A DNA stretch of 34,468 nt. Origin: a virus. This document shows positions 1,641 through 34,468 of this stretch, one piece after another. A model generated the notes under the pieces. It was not told the origin of the DNA and did not search any database. It saw nothing but the letters and a program-made list of their open reading frames with translations. The translations under genes and the position numbers were made by a program. Every line of letters starts with the position of its first letter. Positions within the stretch are counted from its first letter, which is position 1. The stretch spans positions 1-34,468 of the IMG/VR virus record IMGVR_UViG_3300045988_066560; one strand, 5' to 3'.

Positions 1641-1984
1641 AAGATTTCAAGCTCCTTTTCTGGTCTTACAAGGGTAAGTTCTGTTTCCGGAAAACCTTCC
1701 TTGCTTGTAATATGTGCCGCATTATAAACAAGGTGCTGTTTTCCATCTATTAGGCATACACATCTACTGTCGATTTTCTTATATTGCGGTATTCTGATTT
1801 TTGCAGTAATCTCTTTTCCACCCTGGTCAAATTCATAGCGCAACTTGTCAAACACTGAAATTTCCCTGTAACAGATACGCATTCCTGTTTTTTCAAGGAT
1901 TTCTACCGGAAAATCAGTAGTAGTATCATTTTGAATTCGATACAACTCAAAGTATCCATCTGTATATTCTGGTAACTGTGTCAT
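1637..1984 (-). CDS. Head closure / head-tail adaptor protein (SPP1 gp16-like)
   Basis: 115 aa. Position after the gp6-like connector. The C-terminal pattern KIRIP...DSRCVCLIDGKQHLVYNAAHI is typical of the Phage_H_T_join family. Confidence 0.6.
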   Translation of the reverse strand: MTQLPEYTDGYFELYRIQNDTTTDFPVEILEKTGMRICYREISVFDKLRYEFDQGGKEITAKIRIPQYKKIDSRCVCLIDGKQHLVYNAAHITSKEGFPETELTLVRPEKELEIL

Positions 1985-1985
1985 G

Positions 1986-2252
1986 TCACACCTCGCTTCC
2001 CAACTGCCAGCTTACAATCAAATTTTGATAATTCTCTTCCCATTCATGGACTTTATGATGATATGCGTAATAGATATAATTTTTCAGCAAGCTTCTGTAT
2101 GTATAATCCTTTTTCAAGTCTGCTTTCGGATTAAGATGTAAAAGCCTTGCTTCTCCTTCTTTTGCATAATTCATAAGTCCTTCATCCGGGAAGAAAGGCG
2201 GAATTTGAAATTCCTGCCTCACTTCGTAAACAAGCTTTTCCAGTTCCGCCAT
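1986..2252 (-). CDS. Head-tail connector (gp6-like)
   Basis: 88 aa directly downstream of the major capsid gene. Size and position are typical. Confidence 0.55.
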   Translation of the reverse strand: MAELEKLVYEVRQEFQIPPFFPDEGLMNYAKEGEARLLHLNPKADLKKDYTYRSLLKNYIYYAYHHKVHEWEENYQNLIVSWQLGSEV

Positions 2253-2258
2253 ATTCTA

Positions 2259-3407
2259 TCAACCTCCCACGCCCGGTGTTGTCACCTGTGTAACAGGAAG
2301 AACGTATTCCTCTAATTTTGTCACATCAAATACTACCGCACAGTTATCATCGTCTGCCCTGCCGTTTGCATAACATTTTCCAATCACAAGGTTTGCATCT
2401 TCCATGGCTTTTGTCTGATCGTATTCATCAAATCTCACACCGGAAACTCCCATTGTGTAAACGCCTTTTAATGTAAAGATACCGGTTCCCTTCGGGCAAT
2501 TTGCGTCTACGTGCTTTACAATCGGCATAAAGGATGTATTTCTATATCCTCCTGTAAGGGCTTCCCCGTACATGCAAGGGTCTACAAACTCTGCCTCGTC
2601 TAAAGGATTACAGATAAGATGTAATTCTGTAACTTTTCTCTTTCCGTTATTTGACAGAGTTTTTCTTACTTCCATTAAGCCTTTCGGAGAGAATTTTTTA
2701 ATTGTTGTCAGCTTTGCTTTCGCCTGTGCAGTTCCGGTAGATGTAAAAGTTTCCAATTTCTTTGTAATTCCTACCGGTCCTGTCTTTCCGTCTCCGTTTA
2801 AATATCCATCTACTAATCCGTCCTGCATTGCCTCGGCAAGAATAGCTCTGAAATATTTATCCACAAACGGAAGCGCTAAGTCGCGGATTGCCTTTGGAAT
2901 TACCATAAATACAGTTAATTTATGCTGTTCTAAGTCAATTCCTTTGATGGTAGCAGATAATTCCCCTGTAATTGCAGCGGTTAAATCTGTTCCCCATACA
3001 GCTTTTCCCGTATGCTCTCCTGTAATCCAATGTTTTACATCTGCCGGCGCAAAGTTTACAAGAGTTAAAATGTCACTTGCTGTTTTTACATCTTCCAGCG
3101 TTCTTTCAATAATGGAAGTTGGCAGGATATCAATCTGTTTTGCTGTAATCGCCTGGTATACGCCCTCTTTTACTTTTCCGTAAAATTCATTTTCTTCTTT
3201 GCTCAAGGTATGCAAGCCAAGGGATTTTCTGTAATTTTCATCTGCTGCCGCTTTGGCATTCTGTTCTACCAGCTCTTTAATCAACCCGTCATGTTTTGCA
3301 CTAATAATCATTTCTGCCGCTTCGTAGATAGCAGCACTTTTGTCTTCTGCGCCGTCAAGTAATTCTTTTACTTTCTGCTGTAATTCTTTATTTCCATCAA
3401 TAATCAT
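2259..3407 (-). CDS. Major capsid protein, HK97 fold, with N-terminal coiled-coil delta/scaffold-like region
   Basis: 382 aa. ATGA overlap with the upstream protease gene. Portal-protease-capsid order. Confidence 0.85.
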   Translation of the reverse strand: MIIDGNKELQQKVKELLDGAEDKSAAIYEAAEMIISAKHDGLIKELVEQNAKAAADENYRKSLGLHTLSKEENEFYGKVKEGVYQAITAKQIDILPTSIIERTLEDVKTASDILTLVNFAPADVKHWITGEHTGKAVWGTDLTAAITGELSATIKGIDLEQHKLTVFMVIPKAIRDLALPFVDKYFRAILAEAMQDGLVDGYLNGDGKTGPVGITKKLETFTSTGTAQAKAKLTTIKKFSPKGLMEVRKTLSNNGKRKVTELHLICNPLDEAEFVDPCMYGEALTGGYRNTSFMPIVKHVDANCPKGTGIFTLKGVYTMGVSGVRFDEYDQTKAMEDANLVIGKCYANGRADDDNCAVVFDVTKLEEYVLPVTQVTTPGVGG

Positions 3408-4126
3408 TTTTTACCTCCACTAAAAAAAGCACCCCAGTCGGTGCCTGCTTTTGGTTTTTCTCTTTTTAATAATTCTACAACTTTTTTTGCAACTTCTTCC
3501 GCATCTAATGTTTCCTGCTGCACAGCTACCGGAGTATTTAAAATTTTGTTTCGAATACTCATCTGTGCGGACTGATTTGCCCCATCCTCTTTTTCTTCAT
3601 AAATGCTTGTGGCAAATCCATATTCTACAGCTTTGTCTGCGTCAATCCATGTTTCTTCATCTAGCATCTTTTTTACTTCGTCTTCCGTAATGCTTACACG
3701 GTTCATATAAGCTTTTACAGACGCCTGTGTGATAGTGTCTAAATCATCTGCCTGCTTTCTAAGCTCTGCCGCATTTCCTTGTCCGTAAGTCCATGCGTTA
3801 TGTATCATCAAAAGGGATGCACCATTCATGACTCTTTCATCACCGGCCATAAAAATGACAGATGCTGCGGAACAGGCGAAACCATCACAGTAAGTAGTTA
3901 CTTTTGCTTTGCTGTTCTTTAAAACGTTGTAGATTGCCAAACCTTCTGAAACCGCACCACCACTTGAATTGATGTGTACTTCAATTTCATCTGTATCCAA
4001 TTCAGACAGCTCTTTTACAATTCCGTAAGCATCTTTGTCTTTTTCTCTCCACGGATAACTGGTAATTGTTCCAAAAATGTACAGCTCTGCTTTGTTATCT
4101 TTCTTTTCCAAAGCGTAATACTTCAC
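3404..4126 (-). CDS. Prohead maturation protease, ClpP-like (S14 family)
   Basis: Motifs INSSGGAVSEGLAIYN, CDGFACSAASVIFMAG and LLMIHNAW. The track ORF extends to 4186, but that GTG sits inside the SD AAGGAGGTG. The GTG at 4126 has AAAGGAG 8 nt upstream. Confidence 0.85.
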   Translation of the reverse strand: MKYYALEKKDNKAELYIFGTITSYPWREKDKDAYGIVKELSELDTDEIEVHINSSGGAVSEGLAIYNVLKNSKAKVTTYCDGFACSAASVIFMAGDERVMNGASLLMIHNAWTYGQGNAAELRKQADDLDTITQASVKAYMNRVSITEDEVKKMLDEETWIDADKAVEYGFATSIYEEKEDGANQSAQMSIRNKILNTPVAVQQETLDAEEVAKKVVELLKREKPKAGTDWGAFFSGGKK

Positions 4127-8158: not shown

Positions 8159-8265
8159 ATTTCCTCCTGCATAAAAAAGTGTCTTCGACACTTCAACTCC
8201 CCTGCCCCTCAATCTTTGAGGGGTTGGGGCTTTCTTTTTCCTTCCCTATCTGTCATAATACTCTC

Positions 8266-9417
8266 ATGAATATACTTCAAAAAATTTTTACCGACTATTA
8301 TGAAGAAATTAAATATACCCTCCATCCCAGAAAAACGGAAATGGAAAACATTGATAAAATGATCCACTGCGGTGATCCTTCCTTCGGCGGTGCCATGTAT
8401 GCCTGCACCCACTGCGGTAACCTAAAATTCGTTCCTTTCCGCTGTCACAGCCGCTTTTGCCCTACCTGCGGCATCAAATATTCCATGGAGCGCTCTACCA
8501 GCATGGCTTTCAAACTCATACAGTCCAGCCATCGCCACTGTGTTTTTACCATTGACAAAAACCTTCGGGATTTCTTTCTCAAAGACCGCACACTCCTTGA
8601 CTGCCTTTTTCATTCCGTCAACAGTGTCGTCTCCCGTATGTTTTTCAAAATCAATCAATCCAAAAATTTTACCCCCGGCTTTCTCATGGTTTTGCATACC
8701 TTTGGCAGGGATCTCAAATGGAACCCTCACATTCACTGCCTTATTTCCGAAGGCGGTCTTAGTGATGATGGACTCTGGAAACCCGTAAAGCATTTTAACT
8801 ACACCTTTCTTCGGAATGCTTTCCGCACCGCTCTCCTCAATGAGATGGAAACTCTCCTCGGTTCTTCTTTTAAAAAAGTAAAAGCCAAATGTTATGATGA
8901 ACACAAGCAGGGCTTCTATGTTTATGCCAGACCAAACCTCTGTGACCCTAAAGCAGTCATCCGCTATATTGGCCGGTATCTTGGCCGACCTGTCATCGCC
9001 GTCTCCAGAATTGACTCCTATGATGGCGAAATGGTGACTTTTCATTATAACCGCCATGAGGATGATCAATATATACAGGAAACTATTCCTGCCATGGATT
9101 TCATAAAAAGGCTGATCCGCCATATCCCCGAAAAGCACTTTAAAATGATCCGTTATGGCGGCTTATATGCCAGACACAGAAAAACAGATGCAAAACTCTA
9201 CCGGGCTATCCCCAAAAGCAGGCACCGCATTTACCGAAGCTTCAACCTGTGGCGCAATGCCATTCTTTCTTCCTTCGGCTATGATCCTTTGGAATGTCCC
9301 GGCTGCAGGCACAAAATGGAGTTCCTGGAACTTTATTATAATCACCAACGCGTATCCCTCGAAGAACTTTATGAGAAAGCAATGTCCAAATTTCTCGGAA
9401 AGCGTTCTTCTGCATGA
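8266..9417 (+). CDS. tnpA: IS91-family transposase
   Basis: N-terminal zinc-binding region HCGD...CTHCG...RCHSRFCPTCG. HUH block LHTFGRDLKWNPHIHCLISEGG. Y2 block IRYIGRYLGRPVIAVSRI. FIKRLIRHIPEKHFKMIRYGG. The likely start is the MNILQ ATG at 8266. Confidence 0.9.
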   Translation: MNILQKIFTDYYEEIKYTLHPRKTEMENIDKMIHCGDPSFGGAMYACTHCGNLKFVPFRCHSRFCPTCGIKYSMERSTSMAFKLIQSSHRHCVFTIDKNLRDFFLKDRTLLDCLFHSVNSVVSRMFFKINQSKNFTPGFLMVLHTFGRDLKWNPHIHCLISEGGLSDDGLWKPVKHFNYTFLRNAFRTALLNEMETLLGSSFKKVKAKCYDEHKQGFYVYARPNLCDPKAVIRYIGRYLGRPVIAVSRIDSYDGEMVTFHYNRHEDDQYIQETIPAMDFIKRLIRHIPEKHFKMIRYGGLYARHRKTDAKLYRAIPKSRHRIYRSFNLWRNAILSSFGYDPLECPGCRHKMEFLELYYNHQRVSLEELYEKAMSKFLGKRSSA

Positions 9418-9468
9418 TTTCTTTTTTTACATTCTATGCTATAATCCTCTAAAAGGAGGATGGTTGCC

Positions 9469-9645
9469 ATGAAAACAGATATCGAGGAATTACGCAAAAA
9501 ATACATTGACAATCCACCAGAAGGAATGACTCCTAAGGACATTCGCAATATGAGCGAGGAGGAGCTTCTGGATATGGATTACTTTTTAAACGAAGATGAT
9601 TTATTTGCCGATGAGGCTGGTGTAGAAGGTTTTTATATCTTCTAA
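9469..9645 (+). CDS. Small highly acidic protein (58 aa), function unknown
   Basis: AAGGAGG lies 9 nt upstream of the ATG at 9469. A hairpin plus T-tract follows. Sequence is rich in D/E (EEELLDMDYFLNEDDLFADEAGVEGF). Confidence 0.6.
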   Translation: MKTDIEELRKKYIDNPPEGMTPKDIRNMSEEELLDMDYFLNEDDLFADEAGVEGFYIF

Positions 9646-9666
9646 CGAGCGTCATCTTGTTTCTAT

Positions 9667-9692
9667 GCCCACCTTTGTGTGGGCTATTTTCA
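9667..9692 (+). terminator. Rho-independent terminator after the acidic ORF
   Basis: GCCCAC-CTTTGT-GTGGGC followed by TATTTTCATT. Confidence 0.6.
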
Positions 9693-9724
9693 TTCATTGT
9701 TCCAACAAAAGTCGGAATTTCCTA

Positions 9725-18468: not shown

Positions 18469-18527
18469 AGGCTTAAAGTTTCATATATGACTTACCCGGA
18501 GCGTGTCTCTCCGGGCTTTTCTTTTTT
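18469..18527 (+). ncRNA. Predicted short antisense RNA (about 55-60 nt) opposite the rep mRNA leader
   Basis: Defined by the promoter at 18434-18462 and the strong terminator at 18495-18530. No ORF. Confidence 0.4.
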
Positions 18528-18530
18528 ATT
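18495..18530 (+). terminator. Strong rho-independent terminator (plus strand)
   Basis: CCCGGAG-CGTGTCT-CTCCGGG followed by CTTTTCTTTTTTATTT. Confidence 0.7.
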
Positions 18531-18741
18531 TGATTTGTACAAAATTATGTCCCACTGCTCTGGTATGCTTGTACTCTCTTTTTCCCATAAAGTTTCCTTT
18601 TCCTCCGTGACTCCCATAGAATTGGTCTATAAGATTGAAACTTTCTAAAGTAAGGGATGTTATTCCGTGTCTCTCTTTAATCCGTTCTATCTCGGAAAAT
18701 ACAGGTAAGAGTTCTTTTTCTAATTGTGTAAATTCTCCCAT
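18526..18741 (-). CDS. Hypothetical protein (71 aa)
   Basis: ORF in the early operon chain. Confidence 0.5.
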   Translation of the reverse strand: MGEFTQLEKELLPVFSEIERIKERHGITSLTLESFNLIDQFYGSHGGKGNFMGKREYKHTRAVGHNFVQIK

Positions 18742-18769
18742 TGCTTTTTTCTCCGTATTCTTGTATAAT
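18741..18769 (+). promoter_or_regulatory. Candidate plus-strand promoter
   Basis: Perfect -10 TATAAT (18764-18769), 17-nt spacer, -35 TTGCTT (18741-18746). Confidence 0.4.
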
Positions 18770-18789
18770 GGACTTGTTAATTAAATTCC

Positions 18790-18999
18790 CTAGTCCGCAT
18801 GAGTTCTATCTCTGCGGGCTTTTTTCTTTAACAACATTTCCCATTCTCTTACTTTCTCGATAGACCAGAACAGCATATATGTAACCATCCCTACTCCAAA
18901 TATCTGTCCTAAAAGGCTCATATCTTCGGGAATTTTAAAAACTGTGTTAAATAACAGTGCTGTCCCCAGAATTGCTTGTGTTAAGCTTTCACTGTGCAT
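18790..18999 (-). CDS. Small membrane protein (two hydrophobic helices, basic C-terminal tail)
   Basis: AILGTALLFNTVF and LLGQIFGVGMVTYMLFWSI, followed by LLKKKARRDRTHAD. Confidence 0.55.
   Translation of the reverse strand: MHSESLTQAILGTALLFNTVFKIPEDMSLLGQIFGVGMVTYMLFWSIEKVREWEMLLKKKARRDRTHAD
18793..18830 (+). terminator. Strong rho-independent terminator (plus strand) embedded in the 3' end of the minus-strand membrane-protein gene
   Basis: GTCCGCA...TGCGGGC stem (7 bp with one G-U) plus an inner GAG/CTC extension, followed by TTTTTTCTTT. Confidence 0.6.
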
Positions 19000-19018
19000 G
19001 GCTTGTCCTTCCTTTCTT

Positions 19019-19042
19019 ACCGCACTAGGCGGTCTTTCTTTT
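19019..19042 (+). terminator. Short hairpin plus T-tract (plus-strand terminator geometry)
   Basis: ACCGC-ACTAG-GCGGT followed by CTTTCTTTTG. Confidence 0.35.
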
Positions 19043-19171
19043 GTAAAACGCCAAAATTATTCTGGATACATTATCAACAATATTTTTAATCTCTTCTTCC
19101 GAAGTATTTTTTGAAAAATCGTCTCGTACCTCTATTTTGTTTTCTCCTTTATTTTCTTTTAAGAGCACCAT
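19025..19171 (-). CDS. Hypothetical small protein (48 aa)
   Basis: The internal ATG at 19171 is preceded by AAGGAGG. The longer track ORF would overlap the upstream gene by 62 nt. Confidence 0.45.
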   Translation of the reverse strand: MVLLKENKGENKIEVRDDFSKNTSEEEIKNIVDNVSRIILAFYKRKTA

Positions 19172-19217
19172 AGAGCCACCTCCTTGTTTTATGGTATGCT
19201 GTTCTTCTTGTCTATGT

Positions 19218-19439
19218 TTATGTAGGATGTATTTTAATCTTTGACACTTCCTCACGGTATCTTTGCATCGCTTTTCCAATTAGAGCCACTCCTGCATCAT
19301 TGTTGTTCCATCTTTCTTCTCTCATACGTGCGTCTATTGCTTTCTTTAATTCCCCGTATGTTTTACACTGGGATTTCATCTTCCTATATAATCGATCTGC
19401 TTCTGTTTCCAGCATTTCTTCAATTTTTGTTATTTCCAT
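19218..19439 (-). CDS. Hypothetical protein (73 aa), first gene of the leftward early cluster after the divergent region
   Basis: ORF with GAGG upstream. Confidence 0.5.
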   Translation of the reverse strand: MEITKIEEMLETEADRLYRKMKSQCKTYGELKKAIDARMREERWNNNDAGVALIGKAMQRYREEVSKIKIHPT

Positions 19440-19486
19440 ATTCCTTTACCTCACTTTCTTTTCCAGTACCTTTGTATCTTTTGTAC

Positions 19487-19515
19487 TTGCCATTTTCTCT
19501 TGATTTCCCTATACT
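19487..19515 (+). promoter_or_regulatory. Plus-strand sigma-A-type promoter for the 85-aa membrane protein gene
   Basis: -35 TTGCCA (19487-19492), 17-nt spacer, -10 TATACT (19510-19515). Confidence 0.55.
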
Positions 19516-19553
19516 TTAAAATAATCATTTTAAGCAGAAAGGAAGTATGACTT

Positions 19554-19811
19554 ATGCCGCCTTATAAATTTACACCTGAGTACACTGAACTCTCCTCAAT
19601 CAAGAAAGAGTTGCGCCCTTTGGAAGATATTGCATCTTCCGCTGAAACAATTGCCAATTCTGCTAAAACTCAATCTGAACTTGCAGTCGAAAAATCAAAG
19701 AAAGCTGACATAAAAGGTTGGATTGCAGTTGGTATTTCTGCGTTTGCTCTTCTAATAGAAATTATTTGTAATTACGAGCAAATTGCTGATTTTTTTAGCA
19801 AATTATTTTAA
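19554..19811 (+). CDS. Small C-terminally membrane-anchored protein (85 aa), moron-like
   Basis: Has its own promoter, an AAGGAAG RBS and its own terminator. TM segment GWIAVGISAFALLIEIICNY. Confidence 0.6.
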   Translation: MPPYKFTPEYTELSSIKKELRPLEDIASSAETIANSAKTQSELAVEKSKKADIKGWIAVGISAFALLIEIICNYEQIADFFSKLF

Positions 19812-19872
19812 TACAAAATTAGAAATTAAAACAATTATCAGGGTAATAATAGAAAATACCAATCCTACATCT

Positions 19873-19908
19873 GAAACCGTTATTTTTGACGGTTTCTTTT
19901 CTTTCTTG
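19873..19908 (+). terminator. Rho-independent terminator (plus strand)
   Basis: GAAACCGT-TATTTTTG-ACGGTTTC followed by TTTTCTTTCTT. Confidence 0.7.
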
Positions 19909-19933
19909 TCGTTCATCTTCTTCACTTCACTTT

Positions 19934-20080
19934 CTATTTCTTCTTATTTCTCCAATTCCGATATGCTTTTTTTAAATCTTCTGGAATTGACTCATAAATC
20001 AATAGTGCCATAAGGATTATAAGCGCGACTAGCAGTACAATAAGTACAATCGCGAATATCCCACCTAAGATTTTAACCAT
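19934..20080 (-). CDS. Small hydrophobic peptide with Lys-rich tail (48 aa), toxin/holin-like
   Basis: MVKILGGIFAIVLIVLLVALIILMALLIYESIPEDLKKAYRNWRNKKK. The track start at 20122 is TTG without an RBS. The ATG is at 20080. Confidence 0.5.
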   Translation of the reverse strand: MVKILGGIFAIVLIVLLVALIILMALLIYESIPEDLKKAYRNWRNKKK

Positions 20081-20129
20081 TTCCTTCACCCTACCTTCTT
20101 TTTCATGGTTCAAACTAAACAACTATTAT

Positions 20130-20345
20130 CTACTCTGGAATAATAGATGTTTTAATTGCATTACATTCCTTATATATCTGTGGAATTAACATTTCGGTAT
20201 CCATTTCAGCAAGGAAGTTTCCTTCAAAATCCCAGTATTGTATTACCTCACGTACTGGGTCTTTTTCTGTTCCCAGTCCTCTTTTTGCTTTTGTCTCTAT
20301 AACCTGTATAACTTTTGCACTCTTTGTTCCATTAGCTCTATTCAT
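20130..20345 (-). CDS. Hypothetical protein (71 aa)
   Basis: The ATG at 20345 is preceded by GGGGTGAG. ORF in the leftward chain. Confidence 0.5.
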   Translation of the reverse strand: MNRANGTKSAKVIQVIETKAKRGLGTEKDPVREVIQYWDFEGNFLAEMDTEMLIPQIYKECNAIKTSIIPE

Positions 20346-20349
20346 TTTT

Positions 20350-20386
20350 CTCACCCCACTTTCTTTTCCATGAAGTCCCTAATTTT
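20350..20386. repeat. 37-nt direct repeat, copy A (33/37 identical to 21073-21109)
   Basis: ctcaccccactttcttttccatgaagtccctaatttt versus ctcaccctgctttcttttccatggagtccctgatttt. Confidence 0.85.
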
Positions 20387-20388
20387 CC

Positions 20389-20417
20389 TTGTAATTCGCT
20401 ATATTTTTTCCTATACT
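20389..20417 (+). promoter_or_regulatory. Plus-strand promoter for the zinc-ribbon gene
   Basis: -35 TTGTAA (20389-20394), 17-nt spacer, -10 TATACT (20412-20417). Confidence 0.5.
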
Positions 20418-20468
20418 TTACTTACAGGCTCCCGCCAGAGCCGAGTAATTTACGAAAGGATTATTTTT

Positions 20469-20939
20469 ATGTCTTATGGTTATGTCACAATTTGCCTTAA
20501 TGGGCATATCGTAAGTAAGTATAATGCCAATCATCAGAAATATTGTTCTCAATGCGGAGCAGAAACTTACTCTTTCTGTCCTAAATGCCAAACACATATA
20601 CGTGGAATTTTTAGTGCTCCTGGGGTAATACTGATAGGAGAGCAGCCTTATGAACTTCCTCACTATTGTCATGAATGTGGTTCTCCTTATCCTTGGACAC
20701 AGAAAATACTTGATAATTCCATTGAACTTCTAGCCTTAGATGATGATTTAGACGACGAGTCTAAAGAACTAATCAAAAATGCTATTCCGGAATTAATCGT
20801 CGATGTTCCAACTACTCCTATTGCTATTGCAAAATATAGAAAAGGAATATCTGCTTGCGGGCAAATTTTAAAAGACTCCTTACGCCAGCTTCTTATTGAT
20901 ATTGTAAGTGAAACGACTAAAAAGGCTTTATTCCCGTAG
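20469..20939 (+). CDS. Multi-zinc-ribbon protein with acidic helical C-terminal domain (DUF2321-like from memory), moron-like
   Basis: The ATG at 20469 has a GAAAGGA RBS. CLNGH, CSQCG, CPKC and CHECG pairs. Opposite orientation to the flanking genes. Confidence 0.6.
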   Translation: MSYGYVTICLNGHIVSKYNANHQKYCSQCGAETYSFCPKCQTHIRGIFSAPGVILIGEQPYELPHYCHECGSPYPWTQKILDNSIELLALDDDLDDESKELIKNAIPELIVDVPTTPIAIAKYRKGISACGQILKDSLRQLLIDIVSETTKKALFP

Positions 20940-21069
20940 ATTTTCCGCAATACTGACAATATTTATCAGTTTTTAATATTAGCCTTTTGCACCAAGCACA
21001 ACGAACTAAGCCATTCTTTAAAAGTTTTTTCTCGTTGTGCTTCTTTATTAACGCATTAAGTACTTTCAT
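20917..21069 (-). CDS. Small zinc-ribbon protein (50 aa)
   Basis: Hand translation MKVLNALIKKHNEKKLLKNGLVRCAWCKRLILKTDKYCQYCGKSTGIKPF. The start is coupled to the upstream stop (TGAGGGAATG). Its 3' end overlaps the convergent zinc-ribbon gene by 23 nt. Confidence 0.4.
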   Translation of the reverse strand: MKVLNALIKKHNEKKLLKNGLVRCAWCKRLILKTDKYCQYCGKSTGIKPF

Positions 21070-21072
21070 TCC

Positions 21073-21109
21073 CTCACCCTGCTTTCTTTTCCATGGAGTC
21101 CCTGATTTT
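21073..21109. repeat. 37-nt direct repeat, copy B
   Basis: See copy A. Here it encodes the C-terminus (IRDSMEKKAG-stop) of the 45-aa ORF plus the RBS of the next gene. Confidence 0.85.
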
Positions 21110-21211
21110 TAACACTTCCGCTGCACTTTTCATAACAAGAAGGCTTTCTCTTGTCATCTGCTGCATGTTCTGAACAATTTCTTTAATTTGTTTTTTCTGT
21201 TCTTCTTTCAT
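21074..21211 (-). CDS. Small helical protein (45 aa), first ORF after the consensus promoter
   Basis: AGGAGGAACAGAC precedes the ATG at 21211. Hand translation MKEEQKKQIKEIVQNMQQMTRESLLVMKSAAEVLKIRDSMEKKAG. Confidence 0.5.
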   Translation of the reverse strand: MKEEQKKQIKEIVQNMQQMTRESLLVMKSAAEVLKIRDSMEKKAG

Positions 21212-21244
21212 GTCTGTTCCTCCTGTCTTTGTTTTTATACCACC

Positions 21245-21273
21245 ATTATATGTTTAATACAAACATTTGTCAA
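21245..21273 (-). promoter_or_regulatory. Perfect consensus sigma-A promoter firing leftward
   Basis: The minus strand reads TTGACA (21273-21268), an exactly 17-nt spacer, then TATAAT (21250-21245). Confidence 0.75.
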
Positions 21274-21399
21274 GTGCAAAATTGTTGCTATTCAACATTT
21301 TATCATTGACGTTTGCCACCCAGTGTGATATTCTATGAATCTGTAATTATTATATTCCAATCTTATATATAGTCAAGCGTTTTTTATAAAAAAGTGCAT

Positions 21400-21427
21400 A
21401 AAAAATAAGCCGGGATTTCTCCCGGCT
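21400..21427 (-). terminator. Rho-independent terminator of the lysis operon
   Basis: Minus strand AGCCGGGA-GAAA-TCCCGGCT followed by TATTTTTTAT. The stem overlaps the endolysin stop codon. Confidence 0.8.
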
Positions 21428-22262
21428 ATACTAATGCCCCTCTGTCATTTGTTCTTGCCATGCGTCCGTCACTCAAAAATGCGTACAGCTCATTTCCAAT
21501 CCACAGCATTTCATCTCTTGCCATGTATCCGCCGTCTTTTAACCAGTACCAGGCATCTCCCTCTTTGTACCAGTTGTTTTCCAGCATTGCGCCGTCTGGC
21601 TGTAAATAAAACCAATTTCCGTTTACATACGCCCATCCGGTACGCATCGCTCCCCATTTATCCATATAATACCAGTGGTTTTCGATTTTATGCCAGCCCT
21701 CTGTATACATATAGCCACTGCCGTCAAAATAATACCAAATTCCGTTAATCTTTTCCCAGTTATTTGTTGTATAGCTGCCGTCTGCGTGCCTATACCACCA
21801 GCCTGTGCTATCTTGTACCCAACGGTCTGTTTCTCCGTTTACAATAGCCTCAAAGGGAAAATTATCTCCGGGACAATTTGTAGGGTTTACATCTTTATGC
21901 TTCTGTACCTTTGTAATGCCATATTTGCTTTTTAAAGAGGCAATAAGCTCTTTTCCTGCGTTAATCTGTGCCTGTCCCATGCGTTCTGTCATAAATGCCC
22001 CTTCGAAACAGATGCCAATACTGTCGGAATTGCATCCGGTAGCGTGTGCTCCTACTGTATCCTCCGGTCTTCCCCTCTCGATTGTGCCGTCTTTTCTAAC
22101 TAAAAAGTGGTAGCCCATGCCAGCCCATCCACGTTCCTTATGCCAGCGGTGGATATCCTGCGCAGAGCATTTAGACGCATCGGCATTATGTAAGATAATA
22201 CGTGTTGTTTTGCTTCTTTTGCTTAAAGAGCCAAATTTTAAGTTTGTTTCTACAATATTCAT
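21426..22262 (-). CDS. Endolysin: N-acetylmuramoyl-L-alanine amidase (Amidase_2/PGRP) plus C-terminal cell-wall-binding repeats
   Basis: ILHNADASKCSAQDIHRWHKERGWAGMGYHFLV...GAHATGCNSDSIGICFEG, then aromatic repeats GWWYRHADGSY, NGIWYYFDGSGYM, NHWYYMDKWGAM, NGNWFYLQPDGAM, GDAWYWLKDGGYM. Strong RBS. Confidence 0.9.
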   Translation of the reverse strand: MNIVETNLKFGSLSKRSKTTRIILHNADASKCSAQDIHRWHKERGWAGMGYHFLVRKDGTIERGRPEDTVGAHATGCNSDSIGICFEGAFMTERMGQAQINAGKELIASLKSKYGITKVQKHKDVNPTNCPGDNFPFEAIVNGETDRWVQDSTGWWYRHADGSYTTNNWEKINGIWYYFDGSGYMYTEGWHKIENHWYYMDKWGAMRTGWAYVNGNWFYLQPDGAMLENNWYKEGDAWYWLKDGGYMARDEMLWIGNELYAFLSDGRMARTNDRGALV

Positions 22263-22275
22263 AGTTCTTTCCTCC

Positions 22276-22728
22276 TTAATCTACAACTTCCCACTCTTCA
22301 GAAAACAGCTCAATCATAGTTTCTTTCCACGGAACACGTCCAAATCTACTTTCTACATACAGATACGGAGCTGTCATTTTGCTATTTTCGTCTGGAAATT
22401 GTGCACGGATAACCACATCTGGTTTCCAATTTGGTAATCGCATTCCCATCCCACGCTTTACCAGTTTTAAGGCATCCCCAAAACTCATTCTTGCTTTTCC
22501 TCCCAAAATTGGTGTGTTTTCAGCGTTGGCAATCATAAATTCGTTGGATGCTATGTTGTCAAAGGTGTATTCCGGTCTTTGGGTATCTAAAAGGCGCATT
22601 ACATCCCCTTCTTTTGTATGCATAATAATTTCGCCGTTTTCCCACGCCCAAAAACCTGCCCAATTTGGCAGTTTCACTTTATTCCCTGCTTTCATTTCTT
22701 TCAGTGCTTCTCTAAAATTCATTCCCAT
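22276..22728 (-). CDS. Tandem DUF2829 / Tad2-like domain protein (150 aa)
   Basis: Two internal repeats begin MNFREALKEMKAGNKVKLPNW and MSFGDALKLVKRGMGMRLPNW. The second ends PYLYVESRFGRVPWKETMIELFSEEWEVV. The ATG at 22728 has an AAAGGAAAA RBS. Confidence 0.6.
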   Translation of the reverse strand: MGMNFREALKEMKAGNKVKLPNWAGFWAWENGEIIMHTKEGDVMRLLDTQRPEYTFDNIASNEFMIANAENTPILGGKARMSFGDALKLVKRGMGMRLPNWKPDVVIRAQFPDENSKMTAPYLYVESRFGRVPWKETMIELFSEEWEVVD

Positions 22729-22762
22729 ATCGTTTTCCTTTCTGCTGTTGCGCCAGCGCAAT

Positions 22763-34196: not shown

Positions 34197-34468
34197 GCAC
34201 TATCACCTCGCTCATTCTGTGTTCCTGATACTTTTCATAGCAGGCGTTAAATAAAAACGGGTCTGCCTTCCAAAATTCTTCTTCAGACATCCCCATTTCC
34301 ATTGCCGCCACGAGATACTCACTCCAATCGCAATCCATCACTTCGGCATCACTTTCCCAGTCTTCGCCGCTTTTTTTTTAGCATATTTTTCATAATTTTC
34401 CTGAAATCCTTTCAAAAGTACCTTTAGTTCTTCTGGATCAGGAGGCATGAGTGCTAATGCTTCATCAA
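34186..34468 (-). CDS. 3' part of the tail assembly chaperone locus: end of gpG (stop at 34338) and the -1 frame gpT extension (stop at 34186-34188)
   Basis: Hand translation of the -1 frame after the A9 run gives SGEDWESDAEVMDCDWSEYLVAAMEMGMSEEEFWKADPFLFNACYEKYQEHRMSEVIVRGR. This is 61 open codons ending 8 nt inside the tape measure gene. Confidence 0.7.
34370..34468. repeat. Terminal overlap copy 2 (identical to 1-99)
   Basis: Direct comparison. Confidence 0.95.
34371..34379 (-). promoter_or_regulatory. A9 slippery run for programmed -1 ribosomal frameshifting (also present as bases 2-10)
   Basis: The minus strand reads GCT AAA AAA AAA GCG in the zero frame, giving the A_AAA_AAA heptamer. 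The zero frame stops 10 codons later and the -1 frame stays open for 61 codons. Confidence 0.65.

Follow-up and report, generated by a model that had tools for sequence, protein, structure and literature searches.

The cassette and its flanking repeats

We examined a viral DNA of 34,468 nucleotides (IMG/VR record IMGVR_UViG_3300045988_066560, the whole of which is called the window below), and in it the region from 20350 to 21109, where two 37-nt direct repeats enclose a gene for a DUF2321 protein and a convergent gene for a zinc-ribbon microprotein, p50zn. Both repeats contain a 23-nt junction element that we call J. Comparison with relatives (denoted by L numbers) makes it probable that the region is a self-contained accessory cassette, placed at a recombination hotspot where the early operon begins, in a Lachnospiraceae-type siphophage group of the gut. 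The features of the locus, in the direction of the early operon, are the following (ORF, open reading frame; SD, Shine-Dalgarno sequence):

21074..21211, minus strand: p45, first early gene, 45 amino acids (aa), ending ...KIRDSMEKKAG-stop, by ORF reading
21073..21109, minus strand: copy B of the 37-mer, with the 23-nt core J at 21073-21095; last six p45 codons, TGA stop and extended SD of p50zn
20917..21069, minus strand: p50zn, 50-aa zinc-ribbon microprotein, the sense partner 'X', CAWC-x10-YCQYC, with weak zinc-ribbon profile matches
20469..20939, plus strand: DUF2321 protein, the antisense cargo 'Y', 156 aa, PF10083; N-terminal Cys/His region and four C-terminal helices
20389..20460, plus strand: P, portable promoter-leader with -35/-10, 5' hairpin and SD
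20350..20386, minus strand: copy A of the 37-mer, orphan J with its core at 20350-20372; gives the p71 ribosome-binding site and abuts the -35 of P
20130..20345, minus strand: p71, early gene of 71 aa, phrog_14088; directly after J in the empty-site relatives L102 and L108

The two direct copies, at 20350-20386 and 21073-21109, are identical at 33 of 37 positions (89%), and a repeat search of the window confirmed the pair described in the initial annotation. With up to three mismatches allowed, the two 37-mers are the sole matches in the 34.5-kb window, against none in 100 dinucleotide-preserving shuffles, and alignment of the flanks shows that similarity ends sharply at the 37-nt limits. On the minus strand copy B reads ...KIRDSMEKKAG-stop of p45 and then GGGA-ATG of p50zn. 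Copy A reads RITRKIRDFMEKKVG-stop, followed by AAAA-ATG of p71 (start at 20345); a stop codon lies 15 codons upstream, hence there is no upstream ORF. The earlier description of copy B as the end of the 45-aa gene plus the ribosome-binding site of the next gene, and of copy A as the same reading with no upstream ORF, is therefore correct on both counts. Between the copies lie 686 bp (20387-21072).

The extra 14 nt of similarity to copy B beyond J indicate that copy A derives from the end of a p45-type gene. Judged from its sequence, copy A appears to be the orphaned 3' end of such a gene, fused to the cassette's own promoter. The same orphan J stands beside the DUF2321 promoter in L096, L098 and L100, and the suggestion of a duplicated gene junction is upheld in this form. 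Two other origins of the repeats were considered and rejected. A transposon target-site duplication does not fit, since the cassette encodes just DUF2321 and the 50-aa zinc-ribbon protein, with no transposase, and the repeats are 37 nt long with four differences; the repeat search of the window also gave no terminal inverted repeats at the cassette. A recent tandem duplication does not fit either, since the copies differ at 4 of 37 positions and segregate independently in relatives.

The junction element J

J spans 23 nt and consists of ATG-GAA-AAG-AAA-GYR-GGG-TGA plus an extended SD, giving the reading MEKK[A/V]G-stop. IMG/VR, metagenomes and the GTDB representative genomes were scanned with the 23-nt core as an exact pattern, CATGGAAAAGAAAG[YR]GGGTGAG. 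This yielded 2 IMG/VR loci and 16 metagenome loci, and no match in the GTDB representative genomes; the 22-nt centre of the 37-mer had no match in IMG/VR.

Alignment of the J instances shows a fixed core with combinatorial flanks, at least four kinds of upstream sequence being joined to at least eight kinds of downstream gene. Upstream stands either the end of a p45-type gene, the end of U50 (an unrelated 50-aa protein ending ...AGVRMAYSMEKKAG in J), the end of U57 (an unrelated 57-aa protein ending ...SVFLDSMEKKAG in J), or nothing but the antisense promoter, directly behind which J is an orphan. The genes after J include p50zn, p71, a 59-aa membrane protein (X59tm), a 56-aa (X56) and a 63-aa protein (X63), an 84-aa zinc-ribbon protein and several others. 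The identical p45 protein occurs on many prophage contigs, with J after it every time; in 10 prophages with identical p45, J follows p45 in all and is then followed by differing gene sets. One of these ten, L288, has four J copies. The span of identity is 23 nt in all contexts, 37 nt with p45-type ends and about 130 nt where J is joined to P. Such identical blocks of 23-130 nt in otherwise unrelated contexts show, to judge from the alignments, shared ancestry and not convergence.

In addition to this, J is a strong translation-coupling signal, as indicated by its 3' half, AGAAAG..GGTGA, which in our reading of the sequence is near the complement of the 16S rRNA 3' end (the anti-SD), and by the spacing from stop to start, which is 4-8 nt or a GTGA overlap. 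A weaker J-like copy, 68% similar to the 37-mer, lies at 19445-19481. A further, diverged J-like element, CATGAAAAAGAAGGTAGGGTGAA, lies on the minus strand at 20085..20107; it reads MKKKVG-stop, has three mismatches to the 23-nt core and precedes a 48-aa membrane ORF with its ATG at 20080. This ORF had been listed as 62 aa and probably starts at 20080, hence its length of 48 aa. J or J-like versions thus precede four consecutive early genes in the window, and the recurring mini-frame M(E/K)KK(V/A)G-stop might be a translational coupler.

At L091 (3400-3520), a U50-family gene reads J in a different frame (...AVCAWLIAWKRKRGEG...). The altered frame could be a frameshift relative to other U50-family members or an assembly error. 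As the gene there passes J in another frame, the J nucleotides are kept even without the MEKKAG reading.

Cassette presence, content and order in relatives

Maps of the region are given here in early-operon sense, with > for a sense gene, < for an antisense gene and a slash before what stands after J:

Window: p45> J / p50zn> DUF2321< P< J / p71>
L102 and L108 (empty site): U50> J / p71>
L098: U57> J / p50zn> DUF2321< P< J / X56> Y54< P< J / p71>
L100: U57> J / X56> Y54< P< J / p50zn> DUF2321< P< J / p71>
L096: X56-Y54 cassette, DUF2321 cassette, and after these another downstream gene than in the window
L083, L095 and L107: U50> J / p50zn> DUF2321< P<, joined straight to the gene found 1.2 kb further on in the window

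In the two empty-site relatives, p71 is 91-99% identical to that of the window and the genes beyond it are 95-100% identical, while blast homology stops just past J (window 20376). The empty site predicted in the initial annotation thus exists, with J followed directly by p71, but its upstream gene is U50 and not p45. Neither p45 nor the 37-mer was found upstream of p71 homologues in any of 79 IMG/VR loci, and the arrangement p45> J / p71> was never seen in the relatives compared.

The order of cassettes also varies. L100, a prophage in a 289-kb contig, has the two cassettes of L098, likewise a prophage, in reverse order, each of them J-bounded. The cassette of L083 is 97% identical to that of the window and has different flanking genes; the homologous stretch is limited by the -10 of P on one side (20409) and on the other ends within J (21095). 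The block formed by P and the orphan J adjoins different downstream genes (p71, a 106-aa gene and X56), and over about 130 nt it is common to different cassettes at 88% identity. Blast breakpoints vary, falling at 21095, 21097, 21099 or 21101 on one side and at 20376 or 20409 on the other. These combinatorial flanks, together with the empty sites and with two cassettes whose order differs between L098 and L100, bear out the earlier suggestion of a cargo module exchanged through a conserved junction sequence.

In L103 (5475-5650), what stands after J is a remnant of p50zn that keeps 44 of the 50 aa and runs straight into p73; neither DUF2321 nor the promoter is there. By its sequence this locus looks like a decayed cassette.

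How the cassettes may be exchanged

The anatomy shown by these comparisons starts with a first early gene that ends in J, continues with p50zn and, convergent to it, DUF2321 read from P with its hairpin and strong SD, and closes with an orphan J leading to the next early gene. In this arrangement copy B is the J that ends p45, and copy A an orphan J that travels with the promoter end of the cassette. J would link consecutive early genes translationally and, being common to otherwise unrelated contexts, would also serve as the crossover point at which cassettes are gained, lost and reordered. The exchange itself would proceed by homologous recombination, for which the J and P-J blocks, short and diverged as they are, would provide the homology, and its likely agents would be Sak-type phage single-strand-annealing recombinases, genes for which are present in relatives. 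Phage Rad52-like recombinases are known to recombine short, diverged homologies (De Paepe et al. 2014, PMC3945230).

Several points weigh against this account. In L083-type phages the cassette has no orphan J, so that it is not always J-bounded on both sides. The invariance of the J core is partly a matter of ascertainment, since the core came from exact-pattern scans. The 3' half of J is near the anti-SD complement and J-like copies stand at four junctions, from which it follows that selection for translation explains part of the conservation of J. Finally, exchange is read from the comparison of assemblies, many of them metagenomic, and no recombination event was seen directly.

Exchange on J has to be weighed against three other explanations of the repeats. 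The 37-mers could be the scar of a single misaligned (illegitimate or unequal) crossover between two related phages, one with p45-p50zn-DUF2321 and the other with a p45-like gene followed by p71, in which case J would have no continuing role in mobility. The truncated p45-type end in copy A and the 4 differences in 37 fit two alleles brought together in this manner, and so does the cassette without a left-hand J in L083-type phages. A single scar does not, however, predict arrays with up to four J copies, nor an orphan P-J block beside different downstream genes and different cassettes, nor the permutation of two cassettes between L098 and L100, and we hold this explanation to be distinctly unlikely. 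J could, on the other hand, be purely a conserved translation-initiation element, that is, a super-strong SD with a coupling stop that recurs by selection, and the cassette a moron that landed between genes. The resemblance of the J 3' half to the 16S rRNA 3'-end complement, the J-like variants before four successive early genes and the stop-to-start distance of 4-8 nt or GTGA overlap all favour it. Yet identity reaches past the SD into coding sequence (23, 37 and about 130 nt), convergence on an SD would not account for six fixed codons upstream of it in three proteins that are unrelated, and where genomes are otherwise 95-97% identical their breakpoints lie inside or at J, so that as a complete explanation it is highly unlikely. 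This had been anticipated in the initial annotation as the reading that would undo its own, namely a widespread ribosome-binding or terminator element at gene junctions; the SD-like 3' half and the recurrence at four early genes speak for it, whereas the shared ancestry shown by the identical 23-130-nt blocks does not.

Direct-repeat-bounded cassettes, arrays, empty sites and permuted order also resemble integron arrays, and relatives encode serine or tyrosine recombinases. A site-specific, integron-like system would thus have J as the attachment site of a dedicated recombinase (for example a phage serine or tyrosine integrase) acting on circular cassettes. Such a mechanism is unlikely given that the window genome carries the cassette and no integrase was found in it, that J, rich in purines on one strand, has no dyad symmetry and neither 37-mer an inverted repeat, and that breakpoints do not fall at one fixed nucleotide. 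The cassettes also carry their own promoters, unlike integron cassettes, and we find this explanation hardly credible.

The promoter-leader P

The plus-strand promoter noted in the initial annotation is part of a longer leader with the following elements, all on the plus strand:

20389-20394: P -35, TTGTAA, consensus match
20412-20417: P -10, TATACT, consensus match, spacer 17
20424-20446: P hairpin, GGCTC-CCGCCA-GAGCC inside ACAGGC...GCCGAGT, by folding and covariation
20454-20460: P SD, GAAAGGA, by sequence reading

TTGTAA-17-TATACT (20389-20417) is a putative promoter with a 9/12 match to the sigma-A-type consensus. After the -10 TATACT the order is 6 nt, ACAGGC-hairpin-GCCGAGTA, GAAAGGA(G) and ATG. 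We collected 27 distinct versions of this leader. The antisense cargo proteins behind them, at least 14 of them unrelated to each other, are 44 to 182 aa long and include a DUF2513 protein. L083 and L092 have identical promoter-leaders before DUF2321 and a 148-aa membrane protein, respectively. The hairpin stem is paired in 94% of cells, compared with 14-36% in slid controls; 24 cells have changed on both sides, one pair occurs as six pair types, and 0 of 500 shuffles reach the covariation score. The leader had no Rfam match, the stretch 18500-22000 giving just a chance miRNA match.

In Firmicutes, 5'-terminal stem-loops shield mRNA from 5'-end-dependent decay. Since the hairpin starts about 3 nt from the expected transcript start, we read it as a portable mRNA stabiliser; it may alternatively be a binding site for a regulatory protein.

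A second leader, which has no hairpin (TATAATTTTCCTATCAAAT[T/A]ATGAAAGGAATGATTT..ATG), is near-identical in L080 at 3940-4002 (before DUF2321) and in L282 at 3700-3622 on the minus strand (before Abi_alpha/PDC-S47), and seems to be another portable expression module of unrelated cargo. In L166, an uncultured Clostridiales genome, three P-type leader hairpins stand in tandem on one strand (1721-3796, plus strand), the middle one preceding a 33%-identical DUF2321 gene. These tandem leaders show that same-strand arrays of P-driven genes exist.

The DUF2321 protein

The 156-aa protein had been called DUF2321-like. It matches Pfam PF10083 over its full length, with 156 bits (gathering score 24 bits) and an E value of 7.8e-46 for residues 4-153 on profile positions 3-156 of 157, which settles the identity; it also matches phrog_16447 (E 3e-56). 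The four Cys/His pairs (CLNGH, CSQCG, CPKC and CHECG) and the helical tail pointed out in the initial annotation were found again: C9, H13, C26, C29, C37, C40, C67 and C70 are invariant in 44 homologues, and an AlphaFold2 (AF2) model (predicted local distance difference test, pLDDT, 76) has an N-terminal beta-rich zinc region followed by helices at 75-90, 96-110, 116-127 and 132-154. The four pairs are predicted to form two zinc sites. A sequence search of PDB gave no solved relative and only cysteine-pattern matches to C2H2 zinc fingers; Foldseek of the model gave TniQ as its best PDB match (E 0.23, TM 0.26, not significant) and a best E of 0.06, also not significant, against BFVD. PADLOC (PADLOC-DB v2) returned no match for DUF2321 and chance-level matches only for p50zn, and a literature search on DUF2321 gave nothing on function, its sole result being an unrelated fungal paper.

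The family comprises about 2,500 clusters at 50% identity, mostly stand-alone proteins of about 160 aa, and among N-terminally extended members no informative fused domain was found. The neighbours of distant genomic homologues are heterogeneous; they include genes of mobile or defence type (SIR2_2, type I restriction-modification S subunit, SieB, DUF3800, RhuM) and some housekeeping genes. Phage copies of DUF2321 mostly point away from the phage genes upstream of them, and in temperate relatives they are co-oriented with cI and integrase where these are visible. Both 2-kb flanks are antisense to DUF2321 in just 15 of 71 IMG/VR loci. In GTDB genomes the nearest homologues are from Lachnospiraceae (Mediterraneibacter, Drancourtella and Acetatifactor).

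The zinc-ribbon partner

The 3' end of p50zn overlaps the convergent DUF2321 gene by 23 nt. We counted as a partner any convergent ORF that has a CxxC...CxxC pattern and a stop codon between -60 and +80 nt from that of DUF2321, binned the pairs by DUF2321 identity to the window, and took as controls other anchors in the same GTDB loci. Partners were present in 37 of 94 GTDB genomic loci (19/20 at 60% identity or more, 5/8 at 40-60% and 13/66 below 40%), and a partner-like ORF at 3 of 643 control anchors. The corresponding figures for IMG/VR contigs are 46 of 70 in total, with 7/7, 26/27 and 13/36 in the same bins; among phage DUF2321 homologues of at least 40% identity, 33 of 34 have the zinc-ribbon partner. 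The length of the overlap is typical of the lineage, being 23 nt in the Lachnospiraceae group, 12 nt in a Clostridium group, where the partner is a 58-aa double zinc ribbon, and 8 nt in staphylococcal phages. Two of the latter carry partner ORFs that are absent from their GenBank annotation:

3280-3456, minus strand: partner ORF of 58 aa in Staphylococcus phage phiRS7 (L109), convergent, 8-nt overlap
3271-3444, minus strand: partner ORF of 57 aa in Staphylococcus phage phi879 (L110), convergent, 8-nt overlap

Their motif is homologous to that of p50zn (C..C-x10-YC..C). Elsewhere the partner is annotated only as 'hypothetical' or 'zinc-ribbon domain-containing'. On these counts the convergent zinc-ribbon ORF is a real partner gene and not an opposite-strand accident. 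Clostridia and Bacilli both have the pair, and there are a few loci elsewhere. That p50zn mimics a DUF2321 domain was considered and rejected, its similarity to the DUF2321 N-terminus being just at the CxxC level.

A second cassette and other occupants of the slots

A second antisense cassette of the same design lies further along the early operon:

19445..19925, both strands: second antisense cassette (J-like copy, promoter, p85plus, hairpin, p40)
19445-19481: J-like copy of the second cassette, 68% similarity
19487-19515, plus strand: promoter TTGCCA-17-TATACT, consensus match, with the CCTATACTTTA -10 context as in P
19554-19811, plus strand: p85plus, 85-aa membrane protein, phrog_32192, profile match
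19873-19896, plus strand: terminator-like hairpin inside p40, from a terminator scan
19803-19925, minus strand: p40, convergent 40-aa ORF, by ORF reading

A distant phage, L039, has p85plus and p40 next to each other as well, and a mosaic breakpoint at 19446 is common to L100 and L108. Further cassettes, for which few relatives were found, are Y54/X56 and Y148/X59tm. Other relatives have different genes in these positions. In L282, a prophage with the same p45-J, the antisense slot is taken by Abi_alpha (PADLOC PDC-S47, E 1e-80), and in four prophages (L284, L285, L287 and L288) Tad2-like genes occupy the sense slot right after J.

Genome setting

The 99-nt stretch at 1-99 is identical to 34370-34468, which indicates a complete circular assembly of about 34.4 kb. 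The minus strand holds nearly all window genes; apart from an IS91-family transposase, DUF2321 and p85plus are the only plus-strand genes. The gene order is tail genes, Tad2-like gene, endolysin (21426-22262) with terminator, consensus promoter, early operon, and terminase plus portal; the early operon encodes a rolling-circle Rep-like protein, RNase H, SSB, Dam methylase and YopX. Three further features flank its start:

21245..21273, minus strand: early leftward promoter-like site TTGACA-17-TATAAT upstream of p45, a 12/12 consensus match only
21349-21376: second early promoter-like site, 11/12 consensus match
22276-22761, minus strand: gene for a Tad2-like (Thoeris anti-defence 2) protein beside the endolysin, PF11195, E 1e-15

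The guanine-plus-cytosine (GC) content of 20001-21000 is 0.358, and 0.337 and 0.393 in the neighbouring kilobases, so that there is no compositional contrast. No close relative of the cassette region was found in the GenBank phage collection.

Neither a repressor nor an integrase was found among the larger ORFs of the complete circular window genome. Its close relatives, by contrast, exist as integrated prophages that encode recombinases of the serine or tyrosine type and a cI-like repressor, whose gene points away from the first early gene. The window genome may be a derivative in which the lysogeny module was deleted. The IS91-family transposase (412 aa, Y2_Tnp and Zn_Tnp_IS91) lies on the plus strand at 8179-9716, a segment of about 1.5 kb. 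In the otherwise collinear L102 the positions corresponding to window 8178 and 9717 are adjacent, that is, the IS91 segment of about 1.5 kb is missing, and by this comparison it looks like a recent insertion-sequence (IS) insertion into the phage genome.

Possible function of the pair

Slot position, with Abi_alpha and Tad2-like occupants, is the only functional pointer for DUF2321. It leads us to propose, tentatively and as a possibility rather than a probability, that DUF2321 is a superinfection-exclusion or abortive-infection-type protein with a cognate self-immunity factor for the lytic phase. In temperate relatives DUF2321 would be made from the prophage and would act on incoming phages or on the host, the 5' hairpin stabilising the antisense mRNA. 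Once the early promoter fires, read-through antisense transcription would dampen DUF2321, as no terminator lies between the convergent genes, and the zinc-ribbon protein would then be made as an antagonist or partner of DUF2321. The two transcripts may also collide or pair, as the initial annotation supposed. The idea that the cassette is expressed independently of the lytic programme would accordingly apply to temperate relatives, and less clearly to the window phage, which has neither repressor nor integrase.

There are observations that weigh against such a role. PADLOC, PDB sequence and fold searches and the literature gave no evidence for DUF2321 activity. As the window genome has neither a repressor nor an integrase, expression from a prophage cannot work here in the way it would in the relatives. 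Distant DUF2321 genes (below 40% identity) mostly have no zinc-ribbon partner, and no constant partner was found among the neighbours of distant genomic homologues. No plus-strand terminator-like site for DUF2321 was found in 20939-21300.

The main alternative to exclusion or defence is a toxin-antitoxin (TA)-like or regulatory role, in which the DUF2321/zinc-ribbon pair would form an addiction or regulatory module. As in type I TA systems, control would come from the overlap of the convergent transcripts, and the pair would not be an anti-phage exclusion system. Many Bacillus type I TA loci lie in prophages, and the prophage location, the convergent arrangement with its conserved 3' overlap (23, 12 or 8 nt depending on lineage), and the absence of a terminator between the two genes agree with it. 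Neither protein, however, is a small hydrophobic toxin, both are conserved at the protein level, distant lineages often have DUF2321 alone, and profile and PADLOC searches gave no similarity to a known TA family; this role seems unlikely to us. As for the broadest form of the exclusion proposal, it would make integron-like J-cassette arrays that have no integrase, each cassette pairing an antisense prophage effector with a sense early-lytic gene, together with DUF2321 and its zinc ribbon, a new and widespread anti-phage or exclusion system with self-immunity through the partner and antisense read-through. We regard this as doubtful.

Relation to known systems

A moron, as reportedly defined by Hendrix and Juhala, is an additional gene, equipped with its own promoter, that has been inserted between genes which are direct neighbours in related phages. 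The cassette agrees with this in having its own promoter-like site, opposite to the operon, in its accessory, non-essential content, and in the adjacency of J and p71 in L102 and L108 (where the upstream gene is U50). It differs in being a two-gene convergent unit with one gene per strand, in which no terminator and no GC contrast (0.36 vs 0.34-0.39) was found, and in having a reusable junction and a reusable promoter-leader, so that cassettes form arrays and swap order.

Module exchange in mosaic temperate phages, through relaxed homologous recombination at conserved linker or boundary sequences (PMC3945230), is likewise marked by short, partly diverged homology blocks at segment edges with breakpoints inside the block, and Sak-type genes are present in the relatives. 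Here, however, the block measures no more than 23-37 nt (about 130 nt if P is included), recurs inside a single genome and would be the place of recombination; moreover, J stands at a gene end, so that unrelated proteins share the C-terminal tail MEKKAG. With integron arrays the locus has in common small cassettes split by a repeated site and a variable content and order at a fixed location. Unlike in integrons, no IntI-type integrase (among the larger window ORFs) and no attC-like imperfect palindrome accompanies the J arrays, and each J cassette, which carries a promoter itself, is read in the direction opposite to the array.

BstA-aba is a prophage defence with cognate self-immunity (PMC8585504). 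Like BstA-aba, lambda RexAB and SieB-Esc of P22 and lambda, the cassette has an own-promoter gene by the early or immunity region, co-oriented with the repressor in temperate relatives, and a tightly linked second element that could neutralise the effector during the phage's own lytic growth. DUF2321 has no sequence or fold similarity to these systems, and defence and immunity are putative in its case; the putative immunity element is an opposite-strand zinc-ribbon protein and not a DNA site or an internal translation product. Compared with the type I TA pairs of Bacillus prophages (txpA/RatA, bsrG/SR4), the cassette shares convergence, 3' overlap, prophage location and the potential for RNA-RNA pairing, but both of its partners are conserved proteins, and the larger, a soluble zinc protein of 156 aa, is no short membrane peptide.

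Morons and mosaic boundaries are thus already known, and the locus is of that kind. What appears not to have been described is a reusable 23-nt junction that gives unrelated proteins one C-terminal tail, J-bounded arrays with permuted order, a covarying portable leader hairpin, and a deeply conserved, often unannotated zinc-ribbon partner of DUF2321.

If the cassette model is true, J would mark a compact and recognisable hotspot at which gut Firmicute phages store and shuffle accessory genes. Given the Abi_alpha-type candidate and the Tad2-like occupants, J and the leader could be used as sequence handles to mine for defence and counter-defence genes. The covarying 5' hairpin would be a candidate portable mRNA-stabilising or regulatory element outside Rfam. 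For DUF2321 the locus would provide a first functional lead, with a pair that is testable in tractable Staphylococcus phages.

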